Shown: piece by piece, positions 27,601 to 61,507 of the stretch
How the letters are laid out: every line of letters begins with the position of its first letter
Numbering within the stretch: position 1 is the first letter of the stretch
Source: a virus
IMG/VR virus record: IMGVR_UViG_3300036985_006248
Location: 1-64,000 of that record
Length of the DNA stretch: 64,000 nt
Strand: one strand, 5' to 3'
Notes under the pieces: model-generated
Told to the model about the DNA's origin: nothing
Database searches by the model: none
The model's input: only the letters and a program-made list of their open reading frames with translations
Made by a program: the position numbers and the translations under genes

Positions 27601-30003
27601 CATGTTGGTATATGGCACAGAAGCCGAAAGAGAAAACTGATTGTTTATTGAATCGCCCAGCGAGTTGATACCGACAAATTCTACTGAATAATCGGTGATG
27701 TTGCTTCCACTAGCTAAGTTGGTTTGCTCGTACTTTTGTGGTTTAACACGTACAGCTAGATTCCACTTTTGATTATCATAGACGTCTTTAAAATAACTTG
27801 AGGTTAATTCAACGCCGCTTCCACTGAACGAGCCAGTTAACTTGAAGTACGAGTCTACAGAACCGACTTCTCTTTTGACAGAGTATACTTGGAAATTGAA
27901 TTTGTCAGTGCCCCATGACAATATACTTTCATTGGAGTTTGCTTCGTGTACCCCGAATAGAGAGCTAGTTATGAAATCGCTAACTGCATTGTTAGTGCTT
28001 TCTATAATTGGATTTTTTGGAAAGATAACTTCAGCTTGAACCGTTAATGGGATGTAACTGGCAGAATCGATACCACCGGGAATATAGCCCTTGGTGTTTG
28101 AATCACCAGCTTTGCTCTTTTGATAAATATAACCATTATAGCGATCTGGATTATTAAAATCGACAAATTTCTTGGGGATTGAAGTATGGGTATATTTTGT
28201 CTTTAAATCATAAGTCGAGTTATTCGAATATAAATTGATTTTAACCAATTCATCATCTATGCCAAAACAACGGATAAGGTTGCGGAGTGATTTTTCAGTT
28301 CCTTTGCTCTTATAAATATATGAAAGATTGTTATAGATATTTTGGTATATAGAATTCTTAACATTATAAATTTTTTCTTTAAATTCTATTTTTTCGTTTC
28401 TAGAGAGTATATCTTCTAGGAAAGTTGTATCGTTAAAGATGTCCAGATTCTCAAAACCATTAGAACTTAATAAGTGCTTGGCAAACGGTTTTGGTTTAGC
28501 AGTTACATCATATTCAACATTCTTAGCTGTTGGCAAACTCTCTATTTGTACATGTAGGGTATCGAAATAACTGGAGATAATTTGTATTAAATTTGACAAA
28601 TCCTCATAGCCGTTCTTTTGTGCTTCTTCAGTTATCCAAGCAGGTAAAGAAGCATAGATACTAGAGACATTTGTGCTATCGTGTTGGAAGCCAAGGCTGG
28701 TGTATTCTTCTATGACGCTTATAACAGCGGGGTTACTTGAGAAGATAATTGGGTCTTTTTGCTCTAAAACTTTACCCGCTATATCGTCTATGGCAGAACC
28801 AGTATTTCTACAATTAATATCATAGTTGATGATTGCACCGTTTGATACACGTCCTGAATAGTCCAGACAAACCTTATCTAAATCGTTTATTTCAGTGTCG
28901 TTTACGATGCCTTCGTTAAATCTTAAGTATAACCCCAAGTCACGGTTTGACTCATCGGTATTAGAGCCACCGCCTACTTGGGAAGACCAGTTTCTGTAAA
29001 TCTGTTGTGATGTTCTAGCTGTCTTCCAGAAGCGCAATTCATCAAAAGAGCCGTAAGAAGCACCTAACCCAGCCGCCGAAGTATCTGCTGTCACGATATC
29101 GCTTCTTAAAACACCTACATTGGCGATATTACCATGGTTATTAGCTAAGTTAATACCGCCACCGGCAACAAACACCTGTTGAAGTACCAAGTTTCCATCA
29201 ATGAATAAGCAAACATCGAGGTCGGTTGTATTTGTATTGGCGAACGTGAAAGCATATTGGTGCCATGTAGAAGAATCAAAGGTGTAATCCAAGATTTGCG
29301 AGGTTATACCGGCAGAGCCTGAGCGATATGTGACCGAGAACTTGTTTGCTCCGTTGGTCTTTGCAATAGCCAAACGTGTATAGTTGCTAGAAGCAGTTGT
29401 CTCGCTATTCCATAAATCGAACAAAGCATAGGATTTACTATAATAAGAACTAGAGGTGGCAAGATTATCCTTAAAAATAAACTCTACAGTGTTGCCTAGA
29501 TTAGTTATTCCTAAATTTGATTCAAGATTTGCACCTAAATCATAAATATTTGCTGTTTCAAACTTACCAGTTTGCGATTGGTTTGGTCCACCTTTGATCT
29601 TGACATATTGTGGCGTAGAACCAGAACGATAAGTCCCATCGGTGCCTAATATGCCATTAGAATCTAAGTTGAGATATCCAGTTGTCTTAGGATATACATT
29701 ATCAAAAATGTATAAGTCTAGTTGTGAGGCATTGTTGCGCCATTGTTGCTTTTCTTTTTTGGAACCGTCATAAACATAATTTTGATATATGTTTTTAAAT
29801 GCATCAACATAATATCTCTCGGCGGAACCATAGCGAGCAAAATTAGATGCAGAAGAAAAGTCTACGGAAGGTAAAAACCTCTCTTTATCTTCGACTGCCT
29901 CTTCCATATATCCGGTAGATTCAGCTTGTTTATAGAGCGTGTCTAAATCTTGCTTTGTAATAATTTTTTCAGAAGTCTTACCAAAGAGGTCTTTTAATGC
30001 CAT
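21628..30003 (-). CDS. Very large virion protein with LamG-like domains (baseplate/fibre)
   Basis: 2791 aa; WHQYAFT..FIDG..GSFDELRFWKTART..I and IGSVRFW LamG motifs. Confidence 0.75.
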   Translation of the reverse strand: MALKDLFGKTSEKIITKQDLDTLYKQAESTGYMEEAVEDKERFLPSVDFSSASNFARYGSAERYYVDAFKNIYQNYVYDGSKKEKQQWRNNASQLDLYIFDNVYPKTTGYLNLDSNGILGTDGTYRSGSTPQYVKIKGGPNQSQTGKFETANIYDLGANLESNLGITNLGNTVEFIFKDNLATSSSYYSKSYALFDLWNSETTASSNYTRLAIAKTNGANKFSVTYRSGSAGITSQILDYTFDSSTWHQYAFTFANTNTTDLDVCLFIDGNLVLQQVFVAGGGINLANNHGNIANVGVLRSDIVTADTSAAGLGASYGSFDELRFWKTARTSQQIYRNWSSQVGGGSNTDESNRDLGLYLRFNEGIVNDTEINDLDKVCLDYSGRVSNGAIINYDINCRNTGSAIDDIAGKVLEQKDPIIFSSNPAVISVIEEYTSLGFQHDSTNVSSIYASLPAWITEEAQKNGYEDLSNLIQIISSYFDTLHVQIESLPTAKNVEYDVTAKPKPFAKHLLSSNGFENLDIFNDTTFLEDILSRNEKIEFKEKIYNVKNSIYQNIYNNLSYIYKSKGTEKSLRNLIRCFGIDDELVKINLYSNNSTYDLKTKYTHTSIPKKFVDFNNPDRYNGYIYQKSKAGDSNTKGYIPGGIDSASYIPLTVQAEVIFPKNPIIESTNNAVSDFITSSLFGVHEANSNESILSWGTDKFNFQVYSVKREVGSVDSYFKLTGSFSGSGVELTSSYFKDVYDNQKWNLAVRVKPQKYEQTNLASGSNITDYSVEFVGINSLGDSINNQFSLSASVPYTNMLEALKSNKRIYAGAHYTDFNNVSLEHRTDVKIGSVRFWLDYLNDEELIAHSFEANNIGRQQPNWPPAFFASLQNSSSIPLTRIDTLALHWNFFNVTSSDGSGQFIVEDASSGSVESANIYGLQWLNNIIRYQMPGFADEFLADDTQVVNKEYVFSAKKQNPETLNGNDLVQVVDSDDVTRTKDSRAVSYYISIEKSMAQVVNDEIMNWFATIKSYNNLIGEPAQRYKQEYSELAHLRELFFSRVNNSLSFEKFFEFYKWIDSSLSMMINQLIPASANSSDKVRNMVESHMLERSKYENKLPSIEIKGQPKSYPIVSHLEYNYAEQAAYNNNLNSPVKVSRYYTFNPQWLKQRAIRSEEPVNTTLEPQNDVDREILRQVINERNIDSLPKLYEMDSGTVYDGHKDITRLFSKTYKLSTNRELIIEDSIPVFATATTASVLDSQIIPPYKKYSKGGYSQHAYEKVMMSGRTTNNKSFVELEGNVSGTTSINTVLGIADRTLPVRKVNKNIIVERFSAPGGPEVNSRGYLDAEAEEYSAYNSLNHRNSRVRKNLNLWMGETSSIDSENPSFHKINKNPSYSPVDATSSQVSADYDNGFVVHQIPQSDAQYTWITASLQVKPSSSAFINEWDNLTTEYQFLSASDFFGTSFPILNYRFLGSTVTVPFGNILPTNEILNDKTYDTSSNTIHKVIPNFGGPAGPAFEAALYSPFYTHFFITSLNGPYQWPTWKQIRNNENPLAILSRKNNNILVQDKPKQKTREVEGQTALETYVPAREATFTAYREPPVSYNKPMEQTVEMSGSSEPIELVSTYDNNKGRFVNDGLTNRTGINTRTELQVYDVLKTLEDDAVYEPKPHVSKITYSAQIFPTKVNTGMKETRQKPNYAEVAGTGSNGYDRNSGEIRSFWRDDINNRRRTNAFDAVSKTGSLNVLNIAQLSASTTESSFSGVIRNAWVGGLHGAILINKRFNNVYDSKFSSDNDTHLFSTASIILDGAGEIDTTLINNIFLATCGDLTGMDEVDARQFLTLPSGTYFYQPVTAASGRTYTQENFRYSTAYNFVRPNISYTNKIHYPSTSILDFFGLAVRLQYFVNLGMPFKVPALAGKNPWYDSYDDFFEQLRPLSIDHTILPEYNFSEKSDYYLKEKDGDLKGLPPQNYISLIGSDIQTNSIDNAYNITNKINNFVFKDYQGTKKIKLAINGVKKLLPYKGFYPQERTAQLAGLFQKSFWNISMNDVVNGYPTYNTIGFSDLPVLGTPLIQQMQTLMQPYFAPGILFNTIKAGIAMDWPAIYTASSDIDFFDTTYKRGPSYAPMVLGAETGIPFFYSTSSFDTSSYAEKIFTLKEENLFRVPFESLLDLRGYTPNNTLYYLDPTRVSVESFSGTLPNNGHPSSSLRYNPQFSFENKNSNTNQTRKFADSRYQLAINNFLAETPKFFLQNQSLTNFTSTKPIKEISFTPGKSYEMFVKIEKQKDFKMILDTDIPSYIYSEMYLYGDRSQKISAASTFGPPTQFFNHSTASESGEGQKAYDAPAYAPYAPPYYYGPQHMKLSFTAQSETYNSYQEIINSITATCDSANSEMADYFSASVNNLGGSASVNTIHTTTAYKNRMPLSSSLRYDIIVPNNQTRYSQKGELLDITNTNDVSANHWRIQTKFETPMLNFNTDANKNFLIRNITTSSAVTGGLMITGSTTEFGFTGLWSGYAQTGSNSGISLGIMPGDKTSTTEDLASLCGFNVESRYVGQIAGKKEISEAIVMIPFTKKKNHKIGRSDKVDTKSALTIKEVLGENGKTTASSTNGPYYFRVDPLIINENLKNNQIDIDFKDKKISYSNIKKSLSNIRSGNSILKTMKTMTEYVIPPHLDWIYNREIEPFAMYIFEFKQDLLGDELADIWQGVMPRSAMRVSKDSVELEHELNRDEFFHGKDLPDDIQWKVFKVKKRAAYSYDSLVTGRDERFEFKEGQSEDLVYSYNWPYDYFSLVELVNIEASLEVQTSGSNK

Positions 30004-49760: not shown

Positions 49761-51252
49761 TTAGTATTCCTTTACTTCCCAATTCTTATATTTTTTTCGT
49801 GTCTCCCAAGAGCCGTACTTCTCATGGAATTCAGTAAAGATTGTAACCCAAGACTTCTGGAATTGTTCAAAGCCAAAGTTCTTTTGAACATTGTCATATC
49901 CTTTACGACCAACAGCCTTACGTTCTGTTCTTGTCATATTATGTATCTTTTCAAGAGCAGCTATGAAATCTTCCTTTGAAATACGGTCTTCATAGATATA
50001 TGGTACTTCTTGTGAACCAATTATTGCTCGGCTAGCAGGCTCAATTAAGACACCATATGTATCAACCCCATCGGTTAGTTGGTCTTGCATACCGCCTGTC
50101 TTTGTGGCAATAACTGGCGTTCCGCAAGCTAGGCTCTCCAATACCGAGAGTCCGAAGCCTTCTGCATCGCTGATATTTATCGTGCAGTCAGCGGCGTTAT
50201 AAAATTTAGCCATTTCTGCTGCTGGTACTTTTCCTGCTGAAATAGCAAAGTTTTCTTTAGTTAAACCAAGTTCTTCCGCGATGGCAATTAGATCTTGACC
50301 ATTTTGATCTTTTGGGTCAGTATGCATTAGGAGAAGCGCCTTGTCATGTCCTACCTTGTCCAAGAATTCTTTATACCACCACATGACAGTTCCGCTCATC
50401 TTACGGCGTGCATTACGGTTTGTCCAAAAAAACATTGTTTTATCTTTTGGTTGTAAGTGCGTGAACTGACTTTCATCAAGAATCTTAAATAAGTCTGGGC
50501 TGACCGCGTGTGGAACATACTGTTCTTCGACTTCTGGGGCTACAGTTTGCACAATGTCGCTTGTAAGCTTTGAAATAGAACATATCTTATCATTTGAAAG
50601 ATAGAATTGACGATTGAACTTTGGATAAGGATAGTTATCCCATACGTGATAATATAGAATAGGAACATTAGGACGAATCTCTTGCTCCATCTGCCATAGC
50701 CAAGTATAAAAACGAGGATCTGTCATCATCCAGATGATATCGGGCTTCTCTTTCACCAATAGATTTCTGATTAGCTCCGGTGTACCATACCCATCAACTG
50801 GAATGATAATAAAGTCGTCACCATACTCTTGGAATTTAATTGGTCTGTAGTCTTGATGCTTAATAGCACCACCCAAAGAAATTATTTTAAAATTACCAGT
50901 TTTCATCAGGGCTTGAAAGATGTAGTTACACTGAGTACCTACGCCGCTCGGTGATACTTTGATGGACTATATCATCACTTTAAAAGTGTTGGGCGCTGTC
51001 GGATCATTGCCATACAATATTATTGTTTAGGCTAACCGTAGTCTCTGAACCTTCGCCATCTTTTCAGAACAGGCGCTAGGCTGCTGATTGTTCTTAACTA
51101 CTCTTTTTTAACATTCGCGTTTGTCGTTTCCAACTGCGCTGTAGTGAGTAGTTTTACAGAAGTTTCCAGCAATTCACCCAATTTTATATCCGCTATTACC
51201 GAGTGGTTAACGGATGGTCACCTAGAGTTAATATTTTTATCTTTTTCTTCAT
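49761..51252 (-). CDS. Glycosyltransferase family 4, two exons: 51252..51210 and 50956..49761
   Basis: Splicing restores MKKKIKILTLGDHPL-SPSGVGTQCNYIFQALMKTG...; AAGGAG RBS before 51252; RNARRK and EGFGLSVLESLACGTP motifs. Confidence 0.9.
50957..51209 (-). ncRNA. Group I intron (253 nt, no internal ORF)
   Basis: 5' exon ends in U, with P1 AUCCGU/GCGGAU; core GAAUUGCUGGAAAC, AAUCAGCAGCC, GUUCAGAGACUA, GAUAUAGUCC; terminal G; P10 CUCGGUAAUA pairs 9/10 with exon 2 UAUCACCGAG. Confidence 0.93.
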
Positions 51253-54297: not shown

Positions 54298-54546
54298 TTA
54301 TTTTTTTGTTTGTGGAGAAGATTCTAAATCTGTTACTGCTTGTTGATACCCACGCATAAAATTCTCTTCTGCAATTAACATAAGAAATTCTGGGAATTCT
54401 TTTAACATCTGTTCCACAATCAGAAGCACAGTTACATTACCATCTTTTGGTTGTCGGGTTTCCCCAACATAATTAACTAACCATTCCTTCATCGGGTTAT
54501 CTTTAGATACTACTTCTGATTGTGGACTTTCCATTTTTGTCATCAT
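54298..54546 (-). CDS. Conserved phage hypothetical protein
   Basis: 82 aa; EFPEFL..IAEENF.RGYQQA. Confidence 0.7.
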   Translation of the reverse strand: MMTKMESPQSEVVSKDNPMKEWLVNYVGETRQPKDGNVTVLLIVEQMLKEFPEFLMLIAEENFMRGYQQAVTDLESSPQTKK

Positions 54547-57083
54547 TATAAAATATCGGCTGCTAATGTAGCGACAGAACTTCTTTCGCCGCGTTTTAAT
54601 GCCACATGCCCCACCAATTCATAAGGTTTCATTTTTTCTATCACGTATGTCAGCCCGTTGGTAGTTGCATCAACATATTGATTATCGATCTGATAAATAT
54701 CCCCCGTTAGTACAATCTTCGTTCCTTCACCAACGCGAGTGATTATAGTCTTTAATTCATGAGAGGTTAAATTTTGTGATTCGTCAATGATAATATATGC
54801 GTTTGAAATTGAACGACCGCGAATATAGGTTAATGCTTCCATTTCGATTGTGCCAGCTTCCATCATCATTCTCATGTGCTCTTTATTACTTCCTAACAGG
54901 AATTCCAAGTTATCTTGCACGGGAGCTAACCACGGAGTCATCTTTTCTTCTAGGGTATTGTGAGTTACGATAAAATCATTGGTTACGTAAAGATGTTCTT
55001 TATTTTCCACAAGAATACATTGTGCTTCTTTTTTTCCAACAAGCTCAATGCTTTTGATACCAACTCCTTGAATATACTTTGTAGAATGTCGTGAAGCTTT
55101 TCTTGAAATGTAGAAAGGATTAATATTTTGTGGTAATGAGACAGTAAACTCATATGATATTCTACGAGAATTTATCTCTCTTCCATCGATATATGACTTC
55201 TTTCCAACTCTATTTCTTTCTTTAATGACAGCTCTTCCACCGAGCGAACGAACCAACTCTTGCATATCTTTAGCGAGTTGCAAAGAGGTTGTAGTAAAAG
55301 ATGATTCTCCGTTTGTTTTTACGGTACCATCTGTATCCATCAATCCTTTTAATAAATTAATTCGGTCTTGCACGCACGAAAACTTATAGATCTCTGGGAT
55401 AAATTTTTCCCACGCTTTTTTATTAGATAAATGTAAGTTATCAAGTATATTTTTTATAGGATTTTGCCAACGGTTTGAACGTTCGGTAAACTCATATTTG
55501 ATTCCATCAATTATTGTGTTGTTATCGCAGCGAGATTGCAGGGTACTTCTGTTAATATTTAATACTTCTAAAGATTTTCCAATACTAGGAAAAGTTGTTT
55601 TTTCTAATGTTTTAACATTAGTTATAGTAACTTGTCTAGCGGGCTTATTATTGTAGAGATCAGTTCTAATGTTGTAAGTAATTGTCTTTCCATCGTTTGT
55701 TAATCTACAGCCTAATGATTTAATTTCATTTTCTACTCTTTTTATCAGTTCATGGTCGGTATTACAAACACTTATATTATTTTTAATACACCCGTCACCC
55801 AATAATACTCCAAGAGTGTATGCAGGAAGAGGCAATTCTTTATCGGTATACTGTACTGGCGAAACTCTAGGTAAAAAGTGATTTAATTTGCCGTTGGTGG
55901 TTTTAAAAGTATCGATAATCTGTTTAGTTGTTCTAACTTGACCATGCTTATTACGCTTTTTTTCTTCAAATGTCCTAGTTAACCACAAGTGGTCTTCACA
56001 ACATTCCGTAGAAGAATCATCGGTAGTTGTAACTTTATAAATTAGTTTCTTCCCCTTCGGAAACACACCTAAAACTCTAGTTGGACTGCCGTCTCGCCCA
56101 ATGACATTATCTCCAACTTTGATAGAGCCCATTTCAACCCAACCAGTAGGAGTAGCCAATTTTGCATCCAGTGGTTGTGGTCCCGGAAGGAAACCGATGT
56201 CTTTTCCCATTGGCTGCACTGGACGGGAGACAATAAGTTTTGTATATATCTTATCTTCAAGGATTTGTTGTAGCCCAGCCGCCAGAGCAATCAAAGTCTT
56301 GCCGCTACCAGCCTTGCCGATAAGAGAAACAATCTTCACTTCTGGATCCATTAGTGAATCAAGAGCAAATTGTTGCTCTTTGTTCTTAGCGTGAACTCCA
56401 AATATGCCACCCTTGAACTCCTTTACTTTAACTAATGATTGGCTGTAGGACTTGAATCTAGCTAAGGCAGACTTTTTCTCATTGGTGTTAGAAACCAACA
56501 TAACATATTCGTTAGCAAAAAGATTAATCTCTTTTTCGAGCAAATAAATCTTATCATTTTTGTGGAATCGATCAATGACAGCATCATCGACTACATGTTG
56601 TTTATAACCAATAAAGACTTCTTCGGCTCGTTCTACTACTTGGTTTGGAACATAGTCTTCAGTTAGGATGCCCAGTGAGTCGCATTTAACTCTCATGTTA
56701 ATATCTTGGGATACTAACACGACGTTCTTATTATCCCCGAGTTTACGTATGAGCGTTAAAGTTGAGGCTATGATTTGATTATCCGGGACGCTCTTTTCAA
56801 AACTGTCTGGTAGTAAAGATAAATCGCAGGGAAGTACCGAGACGCTACCCTTGCCCTTACCAAGCTTAATCTCGTCTTGTAGACTGCCTTTTTCTCGTAA
56901 TCCATCAAGAGTACGAATAAATTGTCTTGCATTAACACCAACACCGTCTTGACGCTTTTTGTGCTTATCAACTTCTTCCAACACCTTAAGAGGAATCCCA
57001 ACATCGTTGTTCTTATAGGCAAAGATAGCATCACAATCGCTTAAATAAACGTTTGTGTCCAAGACATAGTATTTTTTAGACAT
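54546..57083 (-). CDS. phoH: PIN-PhoH family ATPase containing an intein
   Basis: YVLDTNV PIN domain; GKAGSGKT Walker A; GFLPG|intein|TLEEKM; YIRGRS, IIDESQN, GD..QID. Confidence 0.93.
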   Translation of the reverse strand: MSKKYYVLDTNVYLSDCDAIFAYKNNDVGIPLKVLEEVDKHKKRQDGVGVNARQFIRTLDGLREKGSLQDEIKLGKGKGSVSVLPCDLSLLPDSFEKSVPDNQIIASTLTLIRKLGDNKNVVLVSQDINMRVKCDSLGILTEDYVPNQVVERAEEVFIGYKQHVVDDAVIDRFHKNDKIYLLEKEINLFANEYVMLVSNTNEKKSALARFKSYSQSLVKVKEFKGGIFGVHAKNKEQQFALDSLMDPEVKIVSLIGKAGSGKTLIALAAGLQQILEDKIYTKLIVSRPVQPMGKDIGFLPGPQPLDAKLATPTGWVEMGSIKVGDNVIGRDGSPTRVLGVFPKGKKLIYKVTTTDDSSTECCEDHLWLTRTFEEKKRNKHGQVRTTKQIIDTFKTTNGKLNHFLPRVSPVQYTDKELPLPAYTLGVLLGDGCIKNNISVCNTDHELIKRVENEIKSLGCRLTNDGKTITYNIRTDLYNNKPARQVTITNVKTLEKTTFPSIGKSLEVLNINRSTLQSRCDNNTIIDGIKYEFTERSNRWQNPIKNILDNLHLSNKKAWEKFIPEIYKFSCVQDRINLLKGLMDTDGTVKTNGESSFTTTSLQLAKDMQELVRSLGGRAVIKERNRVGKKSYIDGREINSRRISYEFTVSLPQNINPFYISRKASRHSTKYIQGVGIKSIELVGKKEAQCILVENKEHLYVTNDFIVTHNTLEEKMTPWLAPVQDNLEFLLGSNKEHMRMMMEAGTIEMEALTYIRGRSISNAYIIIDESQNLTSHELKTIITRVGEGTKIVLTGDIYQIDNQYVDATTNGLTYVIEKMKPYELVGHVALKRGERSSVATLAADIL
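54957..56180 (-). mobile_element. Class 3 intein with LAGLIDADG endonuclease (408 aa)
   Basis: Starts PQPLDAK..TPTGW; block B DHLW; LGVLLGDG and LKGLMDTDG; AQCI...VTHN|T. Confidence 0.9.
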
Positions 57084-57127: not shown

Positions 57128-57694
57128 CTACAGTATATTCTTAAGATTTTTAATGTGCTTTGTTATAAAATCATTCATCGCAATGCTTCCAGCCACGGCG
57201 GCGTTCAAACTTCTTACCGAACCATATTGGTTGATGTACATATATCTGTCACAAAGAGACAGAGTTTCAGGAGTAATTCCAACTCCTTCTTCACCGATAA
57301 TAATAAGAGGATTTTCAGGCCAAACGAAATCATAAATCGATTCTGCTTGTGGTACTGAATTTTCTAATGCGACAAAGGTATAACGTTCCTTTAGCTTTAA
57401 AAGCTCCTCACGGGTCTTTACGTTAATGATGTCGGTATAGTGGTGGGTTCCAACGGTTCCACGACGGTCGAATTGTTTACGACCCAAATAGAACATTTCG
57501 CGGCCATTCATGGCATTACATGAACGAAGAACACTAGAAAGATTAAAATCTCCAACAAAGTTCTCCATCATTACAGCAAACGGAAAACTATTATTTTGGA
57601 GATCTTTCTTGATTAATTCTGTAGTCCACTTAGTAAAACGGTCTTGCTTATACTTATCGAGAATATTTCTATTATCAACGGGGCTAGCGTCCAT
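57128..57694 (-). CDS. SpoU/TrmH-family (SPOUT) RNA 2'-O-methyltransferase
   Basis: NLSSVLRS, IIGEEGVG, YINQYGSVRSLNAAVAGSIAM; GGAGG RBS before 57694. Confidence 0.9.
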   Translation of the reverse strand: MDASPVDNRNILDKYKQDRFTKWTTELIKKDLQNNSFPFAVMMENFVGDFNLSSVLRSCNAMNGREMFYLGRKQFDRRGTVGTHHYTDIINVKTREELLKLKERYTFVALENSVPQAESIYDFVWPENPLIIIGEEGVGITPETLSLCDRYMYINQYGSVRSLNAAVAGSIAMNDFITKHIKNLKNIL

Positions 57695-57893
57695 CGTTTT
57701 CCTCCAAGGAATCTGCATAATTTATCAGTGCATCGTGAACAAATTTATTAAACTTCTCTTGACTCCAACAGTCCCATCCCATTGCATGTACTAGACTTTC
57801 TTTAAACTCATCGCTAATTTCAAATACTATTGTTGCCGACCCATCATCATTGTCATTGATTTCTGACACTTTGATAGTACCAATTGATTTCAT
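57684..57893 (-). CDS. Hypothetical protein
   Basis: MKSIGTIKV...DNDDGSATIVF; AGGAG RBS; start trimmed relative to ORF track. Confidence 0.65.
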   Translation of the reverse strand: MKSIGTIKVSEINDNDDGSATIVFEISDEFKESLVHAMGWDCWSQEKFNKFVHDALINYADSLEENDGR

Positions 57894-59345: not shown

Positions 59346-59416
59346 TGGACCGACAGGGAATCGAACCCTGAATCACGCCTTGCAAAGGCGTTGTTATACC
59401 GTTTAACTATCAGCCC
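59346..59416 (-). tRNA. trnA: tRNA-Ala(UGC)
   Basis: Cloverleaf GGGCUGA/UCGGUCC-A with G3:U70; anticodon arm ACGCC-UUUGCAA-GGCGU; GGUUCGAUUCC T arm; CCA not encoded. Confidence 0.93.
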
Positions 59417-60400: not shown

Positions 60401-60631
60401 TTATTTAAATAAATCGTTATCTGATAATGCTGGCAATCTTGTTGCCTTTAACATTTCACTTAAGAGCAACTTAAGATTTAATTCAGAATTATCAAATGGA
60501 GTTACATGGTCAGAGTGGCATACTATTTTTCCTTTAGAATCATAATATACTTTTATAATAGAATAGCTATCAGATTGATAGCTATTTTTATACATTCTAT
60601 ATTCCCATTTTTTAAAATGTTTTTTTGTCAT
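60401..60631 (-). CDS. Hypothetical protein
   Basis: 76 aa; W.YR...Y.I..VYYD..G. Confidence 0.6.
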   Translation of the reverse strand: MTKKHFKKWEYRMYKNSYQSDSYSIIKVYYDSKGKIVCHSDHVTPFDNSELNLKLLLSEMLKATRLPALSDNDLFK

Positions 60632-60640
60632 AAGAAAAAA

Positions 60641-60944
60641 ATAGTAGGCGTGTTATCACACTAAAGAGATACCGGTAGTTTTCTGAATCAAAACACAAGG
60701 TTACTTTCCAATTACCCAACCAATATTGACTAATGATATATAGACGCTTACCCCCTTAAGCTAATTGCCATATTATAAAAATCAGGTTTCATATGGCAAC
60801 GTTTGGGCAACTTCGCATAACGTCCCGCTGTGAACGGATTTATATCTGCAACTTTGGATTTTGTCTCACTCATTAAAGCGTGATTATTAAGTCTAGATAA
60901 TCACGTCCTTTCGGATGGCTACTTCAAAGCCTACTACCTACTAT
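60641..60944 (-). ncRNA. Structured ncRNA with a 23S rRNA H43-H44 (uL11-binding/GAC)-like core
   Basis: Closing helix AUAGUAGGU/GCCUACUAU; GGCUUUGAAGUAGCCAUC, UUUAAUGAG and GUGUGAUAACAC in rRNA order; multiple internal hairpins. Confidence 0.75.
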
Positions 60945-60949
60945 CACAC

Positions 60950-61507
60950 TTACCAATTCTTAGGAATCTTTGTTTGCAAGCAGGTTATTGTATTGTTACC
61001 CCAATATAACCACGAAGGAAGTACAGTCTTTGGCTCTCCTTCTTCTATAGGCCACGAAGCTGCGGTATGTGGCATTCTTGTATGCAGACCACCTTGTAAC
61101 AAACCAACAATACGAGTATGCCCAGCAATTATACAATTCAAAGAGTTCGCCAAATTTTCTGAAAACCGTTGTCCTTGAGCATTTTGAAATGTACTGCACG
61201 TTCTAAACCATATCACAGATTGTGGCTGTAGTTTCGATAATACCACATCAAAGATATTTTTTGGTATCGGCTTAGAATTTAACCATACTGTACCGGGACT
61301 ACCGTGGCCCCAATATTGAATTGAAGAAAAAGAAGAAGTGTTTCTAGTTTGAAGCCAAAGAGCAGCTTCGGTCCAAGAACTAGCACCATAATATTCATCT
61401 ACGGCACCAAATAGTTTTTGTAAGCGGCTACCAATTGCCCAACTCAGCATAAGAAACCATTGCTGAATTCCAGCTCCCGGCTTACTATCATATATAACTA
61501 CTCTCAT
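60950..61507 (-). CDS. Hypothetical protein
   Basis: 185 aa; IQYWGHGSPG...WFRTC motif (DUF4347-like pattern). Confidence 0.6.
   Translation of the reverse strand: MRVVIYDSKPGAGIQQWFLMLSWAIGSRLQKLFGAVDEYYGASSWTEAALWLQTRNTSSFSSIQYWGHGSPGTVWLNSKPIPKNIFDVVLSKLQPQSVIWFRTCSTFQNAQGQRFSENLANSLNCIIAGHTRIVGLLQGGLHTRMPHTAASWPIEEGEPKTVLPSWLYWGNNTITCLQTKIPKNW

Follow-up and report, generated by a model that had tools for sequence, protein, structure and literature searches.

A conserved phage RNA gene that very probably copies the fold of the ribosomal GTPase-associated centre

Can a phage carry an RNA gene that copies an internal centre of the ribosome? The question is raised by a 309-nucleotide (nt) gap in the genome of an uncultured phage of 174 kb (IMG/VR virus record IMGVR_UViG_3300036985_006248), of which positions 1 to 64,000, hereafter called the window, were analysed. 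On the minus strand, the gap is flanked by the stop of a gene for a protein of 185 amino acids (aa; 60950-61507) and the start of a gene for a 76-aa protein (60401-60631), and it holds an RNA element at 60641-60944. The element is present in a single copy in this genome, which has 15 transfer RNA (tRNA) genes. A first-pass annotation had read the element as a mimic of the GTPase-associated centre (GAC) of 23S ribosomal RNA (rRNA). We find that window 60641-60944 is a conserved, structured RNA gene, and very probably one that copies the GAC fold. The structural half of the proposed mimicry is upheld, by a covarying closing helix, a profile match and a base-triple rule, and the functional half, in which the RNA would bind uL11 or uL10-L12 or serve as a decoy for GTPases, RelA or toxins, is treated below as a conditional proposal. 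The sequence features listed earlier were all found in place when checked on the minus strand, save that the insert in the element, put at about 190 nt, measures 202 nt (60867-60666) and has a closing helix of its own, GAG/CUC.

The bacterial GAC is the 58-nt uL11/thiostrepton domain of 23S rRNA (E. coli positions 1051-1108). The ends of the element match 23S 1053-1104, that is, the top of helix 42 (H42), H43, the junction and H44. When a profile hidden Markov model of 14 members (the window element and its close homologues) was compared with the whole rrn operon of E. coli MG1655, the top match was 23S 1053-1087 (E = 3.9e-4). The runner-up, a likeness to the L1 stalk (23S 2116-2186, E = 1.7), was rejected, as its matching letters stand in a different structural context. 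For one relative (locus L054), the bacterial large-subunit rRNA (LSU) model was the best among 4227 Rfam families and hit the same site (model positions 1095-1146, E = 0.035); this locus reads GGCUUAGAAGUAGCCAUC-UUUAAAGAGUG, which is the rRNA consensus except for U at 1072 and one missing base.

With the bacterial GAC, the element shares the order of the blocks, as had been claimed, and about 85% identity to the consensus over 1053-1091. It also shares the position of the closing helix, the GAGU junction, what appears to be a hexaloop hairpin directly followed by the closing strand, the 1072/(1092:1099) rule discussed below, and compatible U1060:A1088, G1087:C1102 and 1090:1101 pairs. In contrast to the GAC, the element is free-standing, outside any 23S rRNA, and contains no other rRNA sequence, which agrees with the first-pass annotation. 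Further, the 202-nt domain splits it at 1090/1091, a second expansion stands at about 1079/1080, one nucleotide is missing at 1080, and the closing helix is unrelated in sequence. The window copy has U1086 and U1067, the latter already reported, and to these we add G1095. In the fold that we propose, the two ends of the RNA (about 65 nt without the 36-nt expansion) would meet as a self-closed copy of the 23S GAC, composed of an H42-like closing helix, the H43 hairpin, the 1082-1090 junction, the H44 hexaloop hairpin and the U1072/(U1092:A1099) triple. The 202-nt domain, pseudoknotted and lineage-specific, would branch off between U1090 and G1091, and two hairpins would do so at about 1079/1080.

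Thirteen distinct homologues are present in related uncultured phages (nhmmer E = 5e-18 to 5e-93). They were reached by way of relatives of the 185-aa protein (60-65% identity, protein database) and then with conserved blocks used as DNA patterns in IMG/VR and JGI metagenomes. In L014 and L015, the gap after the 185-aa gene has the same size and can be aligned with the window element. The element was not found in L005-L011, relatives obtained through the 185-aa protein at 51-56% identity. The equal-sized gene-free gaps after the 185-aa gene at L012 2757-3065 and L013 1774-2082 are AT-rich and unrelated in sequence; the RNA may have been replaced there, or the gaps may be no more than terminators and promoters. 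Neither blastn nor megablast with the element and the surrounding 10 kb gave a match among GenBank phages, and a 20-mer of the family was not found in GTDB genomes.

The secondary structure was derived by hand on an alignment of the window element with the 13 homologues (alignment A3). In this structure 96.3% of cells are paired, against 42-50% in slid controls, and double-change cells number 51, against 17.3 in shuffles; none of 500 shuffles reached 51. The closing helix P1 is paired in 95% of cells, and four of its nine pairs change on both sides. P2 covaries (G-A-R with Y-U-C, 9 GC to 5 AU), as do P3, P5 and a pseudoknot between the hairpin loop RCCY and GGGK (8 AU to 6 CG). An earlier assignment of P2, AAUGAG/CUCUUU, was replaced by the covarying register G-A-R/Y-U-C. 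The homologues keep the H43-like and H44-like blocks and show covariation in the helices just named. The junction strands of the middle domain, GAGACAAAAUCC, UCCGUUAACAGCGGG and GGUUGGGKAAUNGGAAA, vary little or not at all. The RNAfold prediction for the window sequence (z = -2.0) contains the closing helix, the GGCU-UUGAAGU-AGCC hairpin, two more hairpins and a small terminal hairpin.

The covariation of P2 also fixes the place of the insert. Because it puts a helix of the insert's own right after GAGU, the insert sits exactly between the equivalents of U1090 and G1091, and an rRNA-like H44 can therefore still form from the equivalents of 1082-1090 and 1091-1104, which the insert does not occupy. 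Its pairs (G1087:C1102, U1090:A1101, G1091:C1100 and U1092:A1099, plus the hexaloop) are compatible in all 14 sequences; so are the equivalents of G1059:C1079 and U1060:A1088, which are invariant. The junction, too, is invariant but for one base each in L054 (U/A at the 1086 equivalent) and L044 (A at the third position). Loop positions 1066-1070 vary, and G1071, U1072 and A1073 do not.

The window element and its homologues form a sub-family of a much wider set. IMG/VR was scanned for the degenerate motif GGCUNNNAAGYAGCCAUC(N)UUUAA, in which most H43 positions are fixed, and the motif occurs in at least 120 further phage contigs; the counts given here and below for the wider family refer to the matches listed. 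At 118 loci no other 23S similarity was found, and BLAST matches end at about 1052-1096. Downstream of the motif, at a distance of 32-363 nt, 87 of 119 sites show an H44-like hairpin and, directly behind it, a strand complementary to the 5' flank. Closing helices of at least seven uninterrupted pairs are present in 60% of cases, against 8% when flanks are swapped between sequences. Sorted by their middle domains, the at least 75 unique RNAs (87-424 nt) form about 64 clusters, between which no 8-mer is shared; in the smallest members (87-105 nt), a middle domain is almost absent. The rRNA-like ends are split at 1090/1091, as GAGU-insert-UUU(U)R, in the window RNA and the wider family alike. Among the 75 unique RNAs, A1098 is kept in all, A1095 in 74, GAGU (1087-1090) in 68 and A1067 in 55, with G at 1067 in 18. 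The window contributes a new sub-family to this set, featuring a pseudoknotted insert of 202 nt, a second site of expansion and an altered cleft. As a side observation, the middle domains of L065, L068, L073, L100, L120, L132 (which is the cultured Pseudomonas phage pf16), L135 and L149 share a 3' module, CACCCCGNAANNGGUAAGGNUGAA...CYUUUG, the GGUAAG of which recurs in the window sub-family (UAGGUAAGC); some middle domains may be distantly related.

Position 1072 of rRNA, as Conn, Gutell and Draper are said to have described in 1998, forms a base triple with 1092:1099 and covaries as C/(C:G) or U/(U:A). Genuine 23S rRNAs with U1072 (Patescibacteria, some archaea) all have U1092:A1099, with one U.G. 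Among about 87 listed phage copies, C1072 goes with C:G in 57 sequences, and U1072 with U:A in 22 and with U.G in 6; the combination of U1072 with C:G does not occur, and C1072 with U:A is an exception seen twice. Taken per middle-domain cluster, the numbers are 38, 22, 2 and 3 exceptions, and the rule holds. The search patterns had left all three positions free. The window triple is U/(U:A), so that the earlier claim of a U-U:A triple holds in the window, and phage copies and genuine U1072 23S rRNAs follow the same rule. The suggestion that selection acts on the fold, and not just on the sequence, finds in this covariation its strongest support. It points to a conserved tertiary fold in the family, and we infer such a fold for the window copy.

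How far might the resemblance be due to chance, or to a decaying scrap of captured rRNA without a function of its own? The first 18-mer match taken alone (16 of 18) is expected somewhere, given all rRNA as target, and the exact 18-mer has three matches in IMG/VR, all of them by chance in unrelated coding DNA. Nevertheless, the sub-family pairing and covariation measured against controls put this reading out, and we regard its probability as close to nil: sequence and structure are conserved over 14 homologues, the at least 120 further copies have closing helices that differ and yet stay complementary, no other rRNA sequence is near the loci, and the triple rule is kept.

Several observations weigh against a GAC copy that works as an imitation of the site, above all in the window. 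Firstly, the 3' H44-like block is not significant on its own, and the H43-like and H44-like pairs are invariant in the sub-family, so that covariation is absent there. Because these pairs never vary, the sub-family alone cannot prove the rRNA-like H44; its GU-GUGAUA-AC is correctly placed, and, judged on the sub-family alone, a local hairpin of 4 bp would do equally well as a register. The block is supported by the topology and by the 1072/(1092:1099) covariation in the wider family. Secondly, many wider-family contigs are related to one another, and since the motif was largely fixed in H43, only its free positions are informative. Thirdly, the window copy lacks both adenines of the factor and thiostrepton cleft, position 1067 being U and position 1095 G. 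Fourthly, the two hairpins at about 1079/1080, present in 5 of the 14 members including the window and absent in the rest, are located in the lower H43 stem, which in L11-RNA crystal structures is contacted by uL11. Lastly, phage-encoded uL10, uL11 and bL12 were searched for in the genome, and none was found. The window variants are easier to reconcile with conservation of the fold than with conservation of a surface that binds factors. Because of the altered cleft, the loop drift and the extra hairpins, we have lower confidence that the window copy would bind the same ligand as typical members. The coordinates of all parts are collected in Table 1.

Table 1. Parts of the RNA element in the window and its 3' neighbour
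Feature	Position	Strand	Remark
P1, 5' strand, AUAGUAGGU	60936-60944	-	pairs with 60641-60649; equals top of 23S H42
AGUA, equals 23S 1058-1061	60932-60935	-	G 60934 = G1059, U 60933 = U1060; profile-to-23S alignment covers AGUA
H43-like hairpin GGCUUUGAAGUAGCC, equals 23S 1062-1076	60917-60931	-	1067 equivalent U, 1072 equivalent U
Expansion at about 1079/1080, two hairpins, 36 nt	60879-60914	-	RNAfold prediction
First expansion hairpin CCGAAAGG	60907-60914	-	
Second expansion hairpin, 9 bp, CGUGAUUAU...AUAAUCACG	60879-60905	-	
Junction CUUUAAUGAGU, equals 23S 1079-1090 (bacterial consensus C-c-UUUAAAGAGU)	60868-60878	-	nhmmer and Rfam LSU alignment
Middle domain, 202 nt	60666-60867	-	between U1090 and G1091 equivalents
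P2 (GAG/CUC)	60865-60867/60666-60668	-	closes middle domain
P3	60854-60857/60720-60723	-	
P4 hairpin	60833-60837/60825-60829	-	
P5	60821-60824/60743-60746	-	
P6 hairpin	60791-60799/60765-60773	-	
Pseudoknot	60784-60787 with 60714-60717	-	
UUUA linker 5' of H44-like hairpin	60662-60665	-	UUU(U)R at same place throughout wider phage family
H44-like hairpin GU-GUGAUA-AC plus AC, equals 23S 1091-1102	60650-60661	-	1092:1099 = U:A, 1095 = G
H44-like hairpin core GUGUGAUAAC	60652-60661	-	
P1, 3' strand, GCCUACUAU	60641-60649	-	other half of 9-bp closing helix
Six-U run 3' of P1	60635-60640	-	likely 3' end or terminator; terminator-like site reported
76-aa gene, 'WxYR...EVYYD' family	60401-60631	-	ATG at 60631; neighbour of RNA only

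Another possibility to be weighed is that a known type of RNA was missed, such as a group I intron, RNase P RNA, a piece of transfer-messenger RNA (tmRNA), a T-box, a ribosomal-protein leader or a mobile-element RNA. The window does contain a real group I intron of similar size (50947-51248), the neighbourhood is one of tRNA and tmRNA genes, and short motifs like GAUAUAAUUCC and GGAAAGU look familiar. Nonetheless, Rfam gave no match to the window element, either at the gathering thresholds or at E up to 10; apart from the local LSU match in L054, no family reaches E of 0.1 or less on the element. Moreover, no ribosomal-protein gene lies downstream, and the end repeat described next is not conserved, so that we judge a missed known type to be very improbable. 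Individual candidates were rejected as follows. A 9-nt direct repeat, AGTGTGATA, occurs at both ends and could have been a target-site duplication left by an insertion; it is not conserved in relatives, and we take it as a coincidence. For a group I intron or a split gene, RF00028 matches at 50947-51248 only, and the upstream 185-aa protein is full length against 84 homologues; because it ends where they end, there is no exon split at the element. RNase P, T-box, tmRNA, signal recognition particle RNA and Y RNA got no Rfam support, and the supposed likenesses to their motifs did not stand up.

What could such an RNA do? We infer its expression and every binding partner named here. The RNA would probably be co-transcribed with its neighbours (tRNAs or tmRNA in relatives), end at the U run and accumulate as a discrete RNA. 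Acting in trans and off the ribosome, it would then capture something that recognises the folded uL11-binding domain. As the first choice of ligand we suggest uL11, because uL11 recognises exactly the GAC fold; its capture would produce ribosomes poor in uL11 and unable to activate RelA. The second choice would be a host toxin or defence enzyme aimed at the GAC site. By analogy, a precedent may be seen in Tre23, a natural toxin that ADP-ribosylates H44 at 1095-1098 (PMC8661411). That the RNA imitates the GAC away from the ribosome and binds one of its ligands is a serious candidate, which we would place just short of an even chance. The explanation as a whole, a stable RNA of about 304 nt with GAC-copy ends that serves as a trans-acting imitation off the ribosome, stands for us in even balance.

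A more specific version would see these RNAs as decoys of the uL11/GAC site, kept in the tRNA clusters of large phages and protecting or reprogramming translation during infection. There are two routes by which this might work. Either the decoy would soak up a defence enzyme or toxin aimed at the site, for example an ADP-ribosyltransferase like Tre23, or it would titrate uL11, so that ribosomes no longer trigger the RelA-dependent stringent response. The middle domain, being exchangeable, would contribute a second function specific to the lineage. We offer this version tentatively, as one that may well be wrong.

The main rival reading is that the GAC-like ends are only a scaffold: a very stable, compact fold that holds the 5' and 3' termini together and shields the RNA, with the work left to the middle domain. 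In a variant, the ends may direct processing out of tRNA precursors. The middle domains are indeed long, structured and well conserved within a lineage, the window sub-family having a covarying pseudoknot; about 64 different ones are mounted on the same ends, and the factor-contacting loop 1066-1070 drifts in the sub-family. However, a simple clamp needs neither the strict A1095 and GAGU nor the triple rule, and the smallest members have hardly any middle domain to serve. We therefore consider the scaffold rather unlikely as the full explanation; it is also compatible with GAC imitation.

The genes around the element raise one more alternative. Of 119 wider-family matches, 87 have a tRNA gene at most 500 nt away, and the tRNA closest to a match always shares its strand. 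For the window element, this closest tRNA is tRNA-Ala (59346-59416), at a distance of 1.2 kb and likewise on the element's strand; the genome has its main tRNA cluster at 80-83 kb. The gene order of the sub-family starts with an endolysin, continues with tRNAs, tmRNA, or a C39-peptidase-like gene and the 185-aa gene, and then reaches the RNA, 3' of which follow one or two 'WxYR...EVYYD' proteins, a protein of 75-82 aa and a ClpP-like protease. The RNA comes directly after tRNA-Gly in L021, L023, L030, L031 and L048 and directly after a phage tmRNA in L042; in L014 and L015, a tmRNA gene is one gene upstream. No tmRNA was found in the window's own genome. The tmRNA genes of relatives (L014 1380-1728, L015 488-837, L042 1163-1508, L012 1029-1421) encode the tag ANDNVELSNYALAA, longer in L012.

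Given this arrangement, the sub-family RNA might act in cis as a leader of the gene at 60401-60631, or form a particle with its lysine-tailed protein. The first-pass annotation had kept a cis role in reserve. It may apply to the sub-family, in which the RNA always precedes one small gene, and it does not fit the wider family, members of which stand between tRNA genes without such a gene, as in phage pf16. The distance to the 'WxYR...EVYYD' gene is 4-40 nt in 12 of 13 relatives; the protein family (phrog_21321) is conserved (alignment A4) and has Lys-rich tails in many members; and the window start codon at 60631, 9 nt past P1, is without a Shine-Dalgarno sequence, as had been remarked. On the other hand, all sub-family phages share one gene order, so that the adjacency may be inherited and not functional. 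U runs or small terminator hairpins also stand 3' of the element in L015, L043, L042 and L048, and thus between RNA and gene in several members, and L042 and L054 have Shine-Dalgarno sequences of their own. The AlphaFold model of the 76-aa protein (mean confidence score pLDDT 89, beta-beta-beta-alpha) has no match in the PDB and no ribosomal-protein or other known RNA-binding fold, and against Pfam the family gave nothing significant (best E = 0.0015, in 1 of 15 members). A cis or particle role is accordingly an improbable one. The 'WxYR...EVYYD' genes form paralogous tandem pairs in L021, L023, L054 and L048.

The phage GAC-like RNA family appears to be new, in that it has no Rfam family and is unannotated in its cultured carriers. 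Unannotated members are found in Pseudomonas phage pf16 (NC_041881.1, about 29420-29600), where the copy lies between tRNA-Asn and tRNA-Pro, and in Cronobacter phage GAP32 (JN882285.1, about 289500-289760). Further cultured carriers are Aeromonas phage 4_4572, Pseudomonas phages Astolliot and UNO-G1W1, Xanthomonas phage XacN1, Serratia phage BF and Erwinia phage pEa_SNUABM_12. The view that no described family matches is sustained by Rfam for the window element and by the literature, in which we found no description of a free-standing phage GAC-like RNA, most subscription journals being outside the search. To our knowledge, a phage gene copying an internal functional centre of rRNA has not been reported.

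There are nevertheless instructive parallels. The L10 leader (RF00557), bound by L10(L12)4, is likewise an off-ribosome RNA that imitates the same 23S region for recognition by a ribosomal protein. Leaders of this type, however, act in cis upstream of the ribosomal-protein genes that they regulate in bacteria, whereas here the genome is that of a phage without an L10, L11 or L12 gene, the downstream gene encodes a phage protein, Rfam gives no match, the family is found in tRNA arrays, and the rRNA site is copied much more literally. Phage tRNAs and tmRNAs share with the element the neighbourhood, the strand and probably the transcripts, and all are RNAs of the translation apparatus in large phages; but those are working copies of free cellular RNAs, whereas the element copies an internal rRNA domain that cannot be swapped into a ribosome. 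The pseudo-ToxI decoy of phage PhiTE (PMC3475682) is a phage RNA that imitates a host RNA and neutralises the protein recognising it. The parallel concerns the mechanism only: the RNA imitated is another one, there is no sequence relation, and the decoy role is here a proposal by analogy. GOLLD and ROOL, which often lie beside tRNA genes, are likewise ornate, conserved phage RNAs of unknown function; they are not copies of rRNA, and the element has no Rfam match to either.

If the RNA does imitate the uL11/GAC site, it would represent a new kind of viral interference with translation, the stringent response or rRNA-directed toxins, and it would hint at host factors by which this site is attacked or read. 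With at least 120 contigs, the family is large, and because cultured phages such as pf16 and GAP32 carry members, the idea can be tested at the bench. It also provides a natural set of minimal self-folding GAC domains, from 87 nt upward, for structural work.

GAC copies were also seen outside phages. A free-standing, uninterrupted one of 62 nt lies at L193 5583-5644 (minus strand) in Calothrix brevissima NIES-22 (54 bits with the Rfam archaeal LSU model), and about 17 similar copies occur in L182-L221, from Microcoleus, Moorena, Oscillatoria and other filamentous cyanobacteria. They are outside 23S genes, do not adjoin ribosomal-protein genes, and are followed by a conserved tail, GGCGGAGUCCCUCUAGUAACUGAG.

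Three further features of the window deserve mention. A SpoU-family RNA 2'-O-methyltransferase is encoded at 57128-57718 (minus strand; Pfam E = 2e-23). Its gene shares the strand of the RNA and follows it at a distance of 2-4.5 kb in the downstream direction; the protein is 83-87% identical in L029, L031, L048, L054 and L042, much better conserved than its neighbours, and its substrate might be the GAC-like RNA, tRNA or host rRNA. The 845-aa PhoH-like open reading frame (ORF) at 54546-57083 (minus strand) has an apparent large insertion in its middle. Finally, the group I intron at 50947-51248 (minus strand, RF00028, 58.6 bits) is situated between a 381-aa glycosyltransferase ORF and a GDP-mannose dehydratase gene, so that the glycosyltransferase probably has a short upstream exon.

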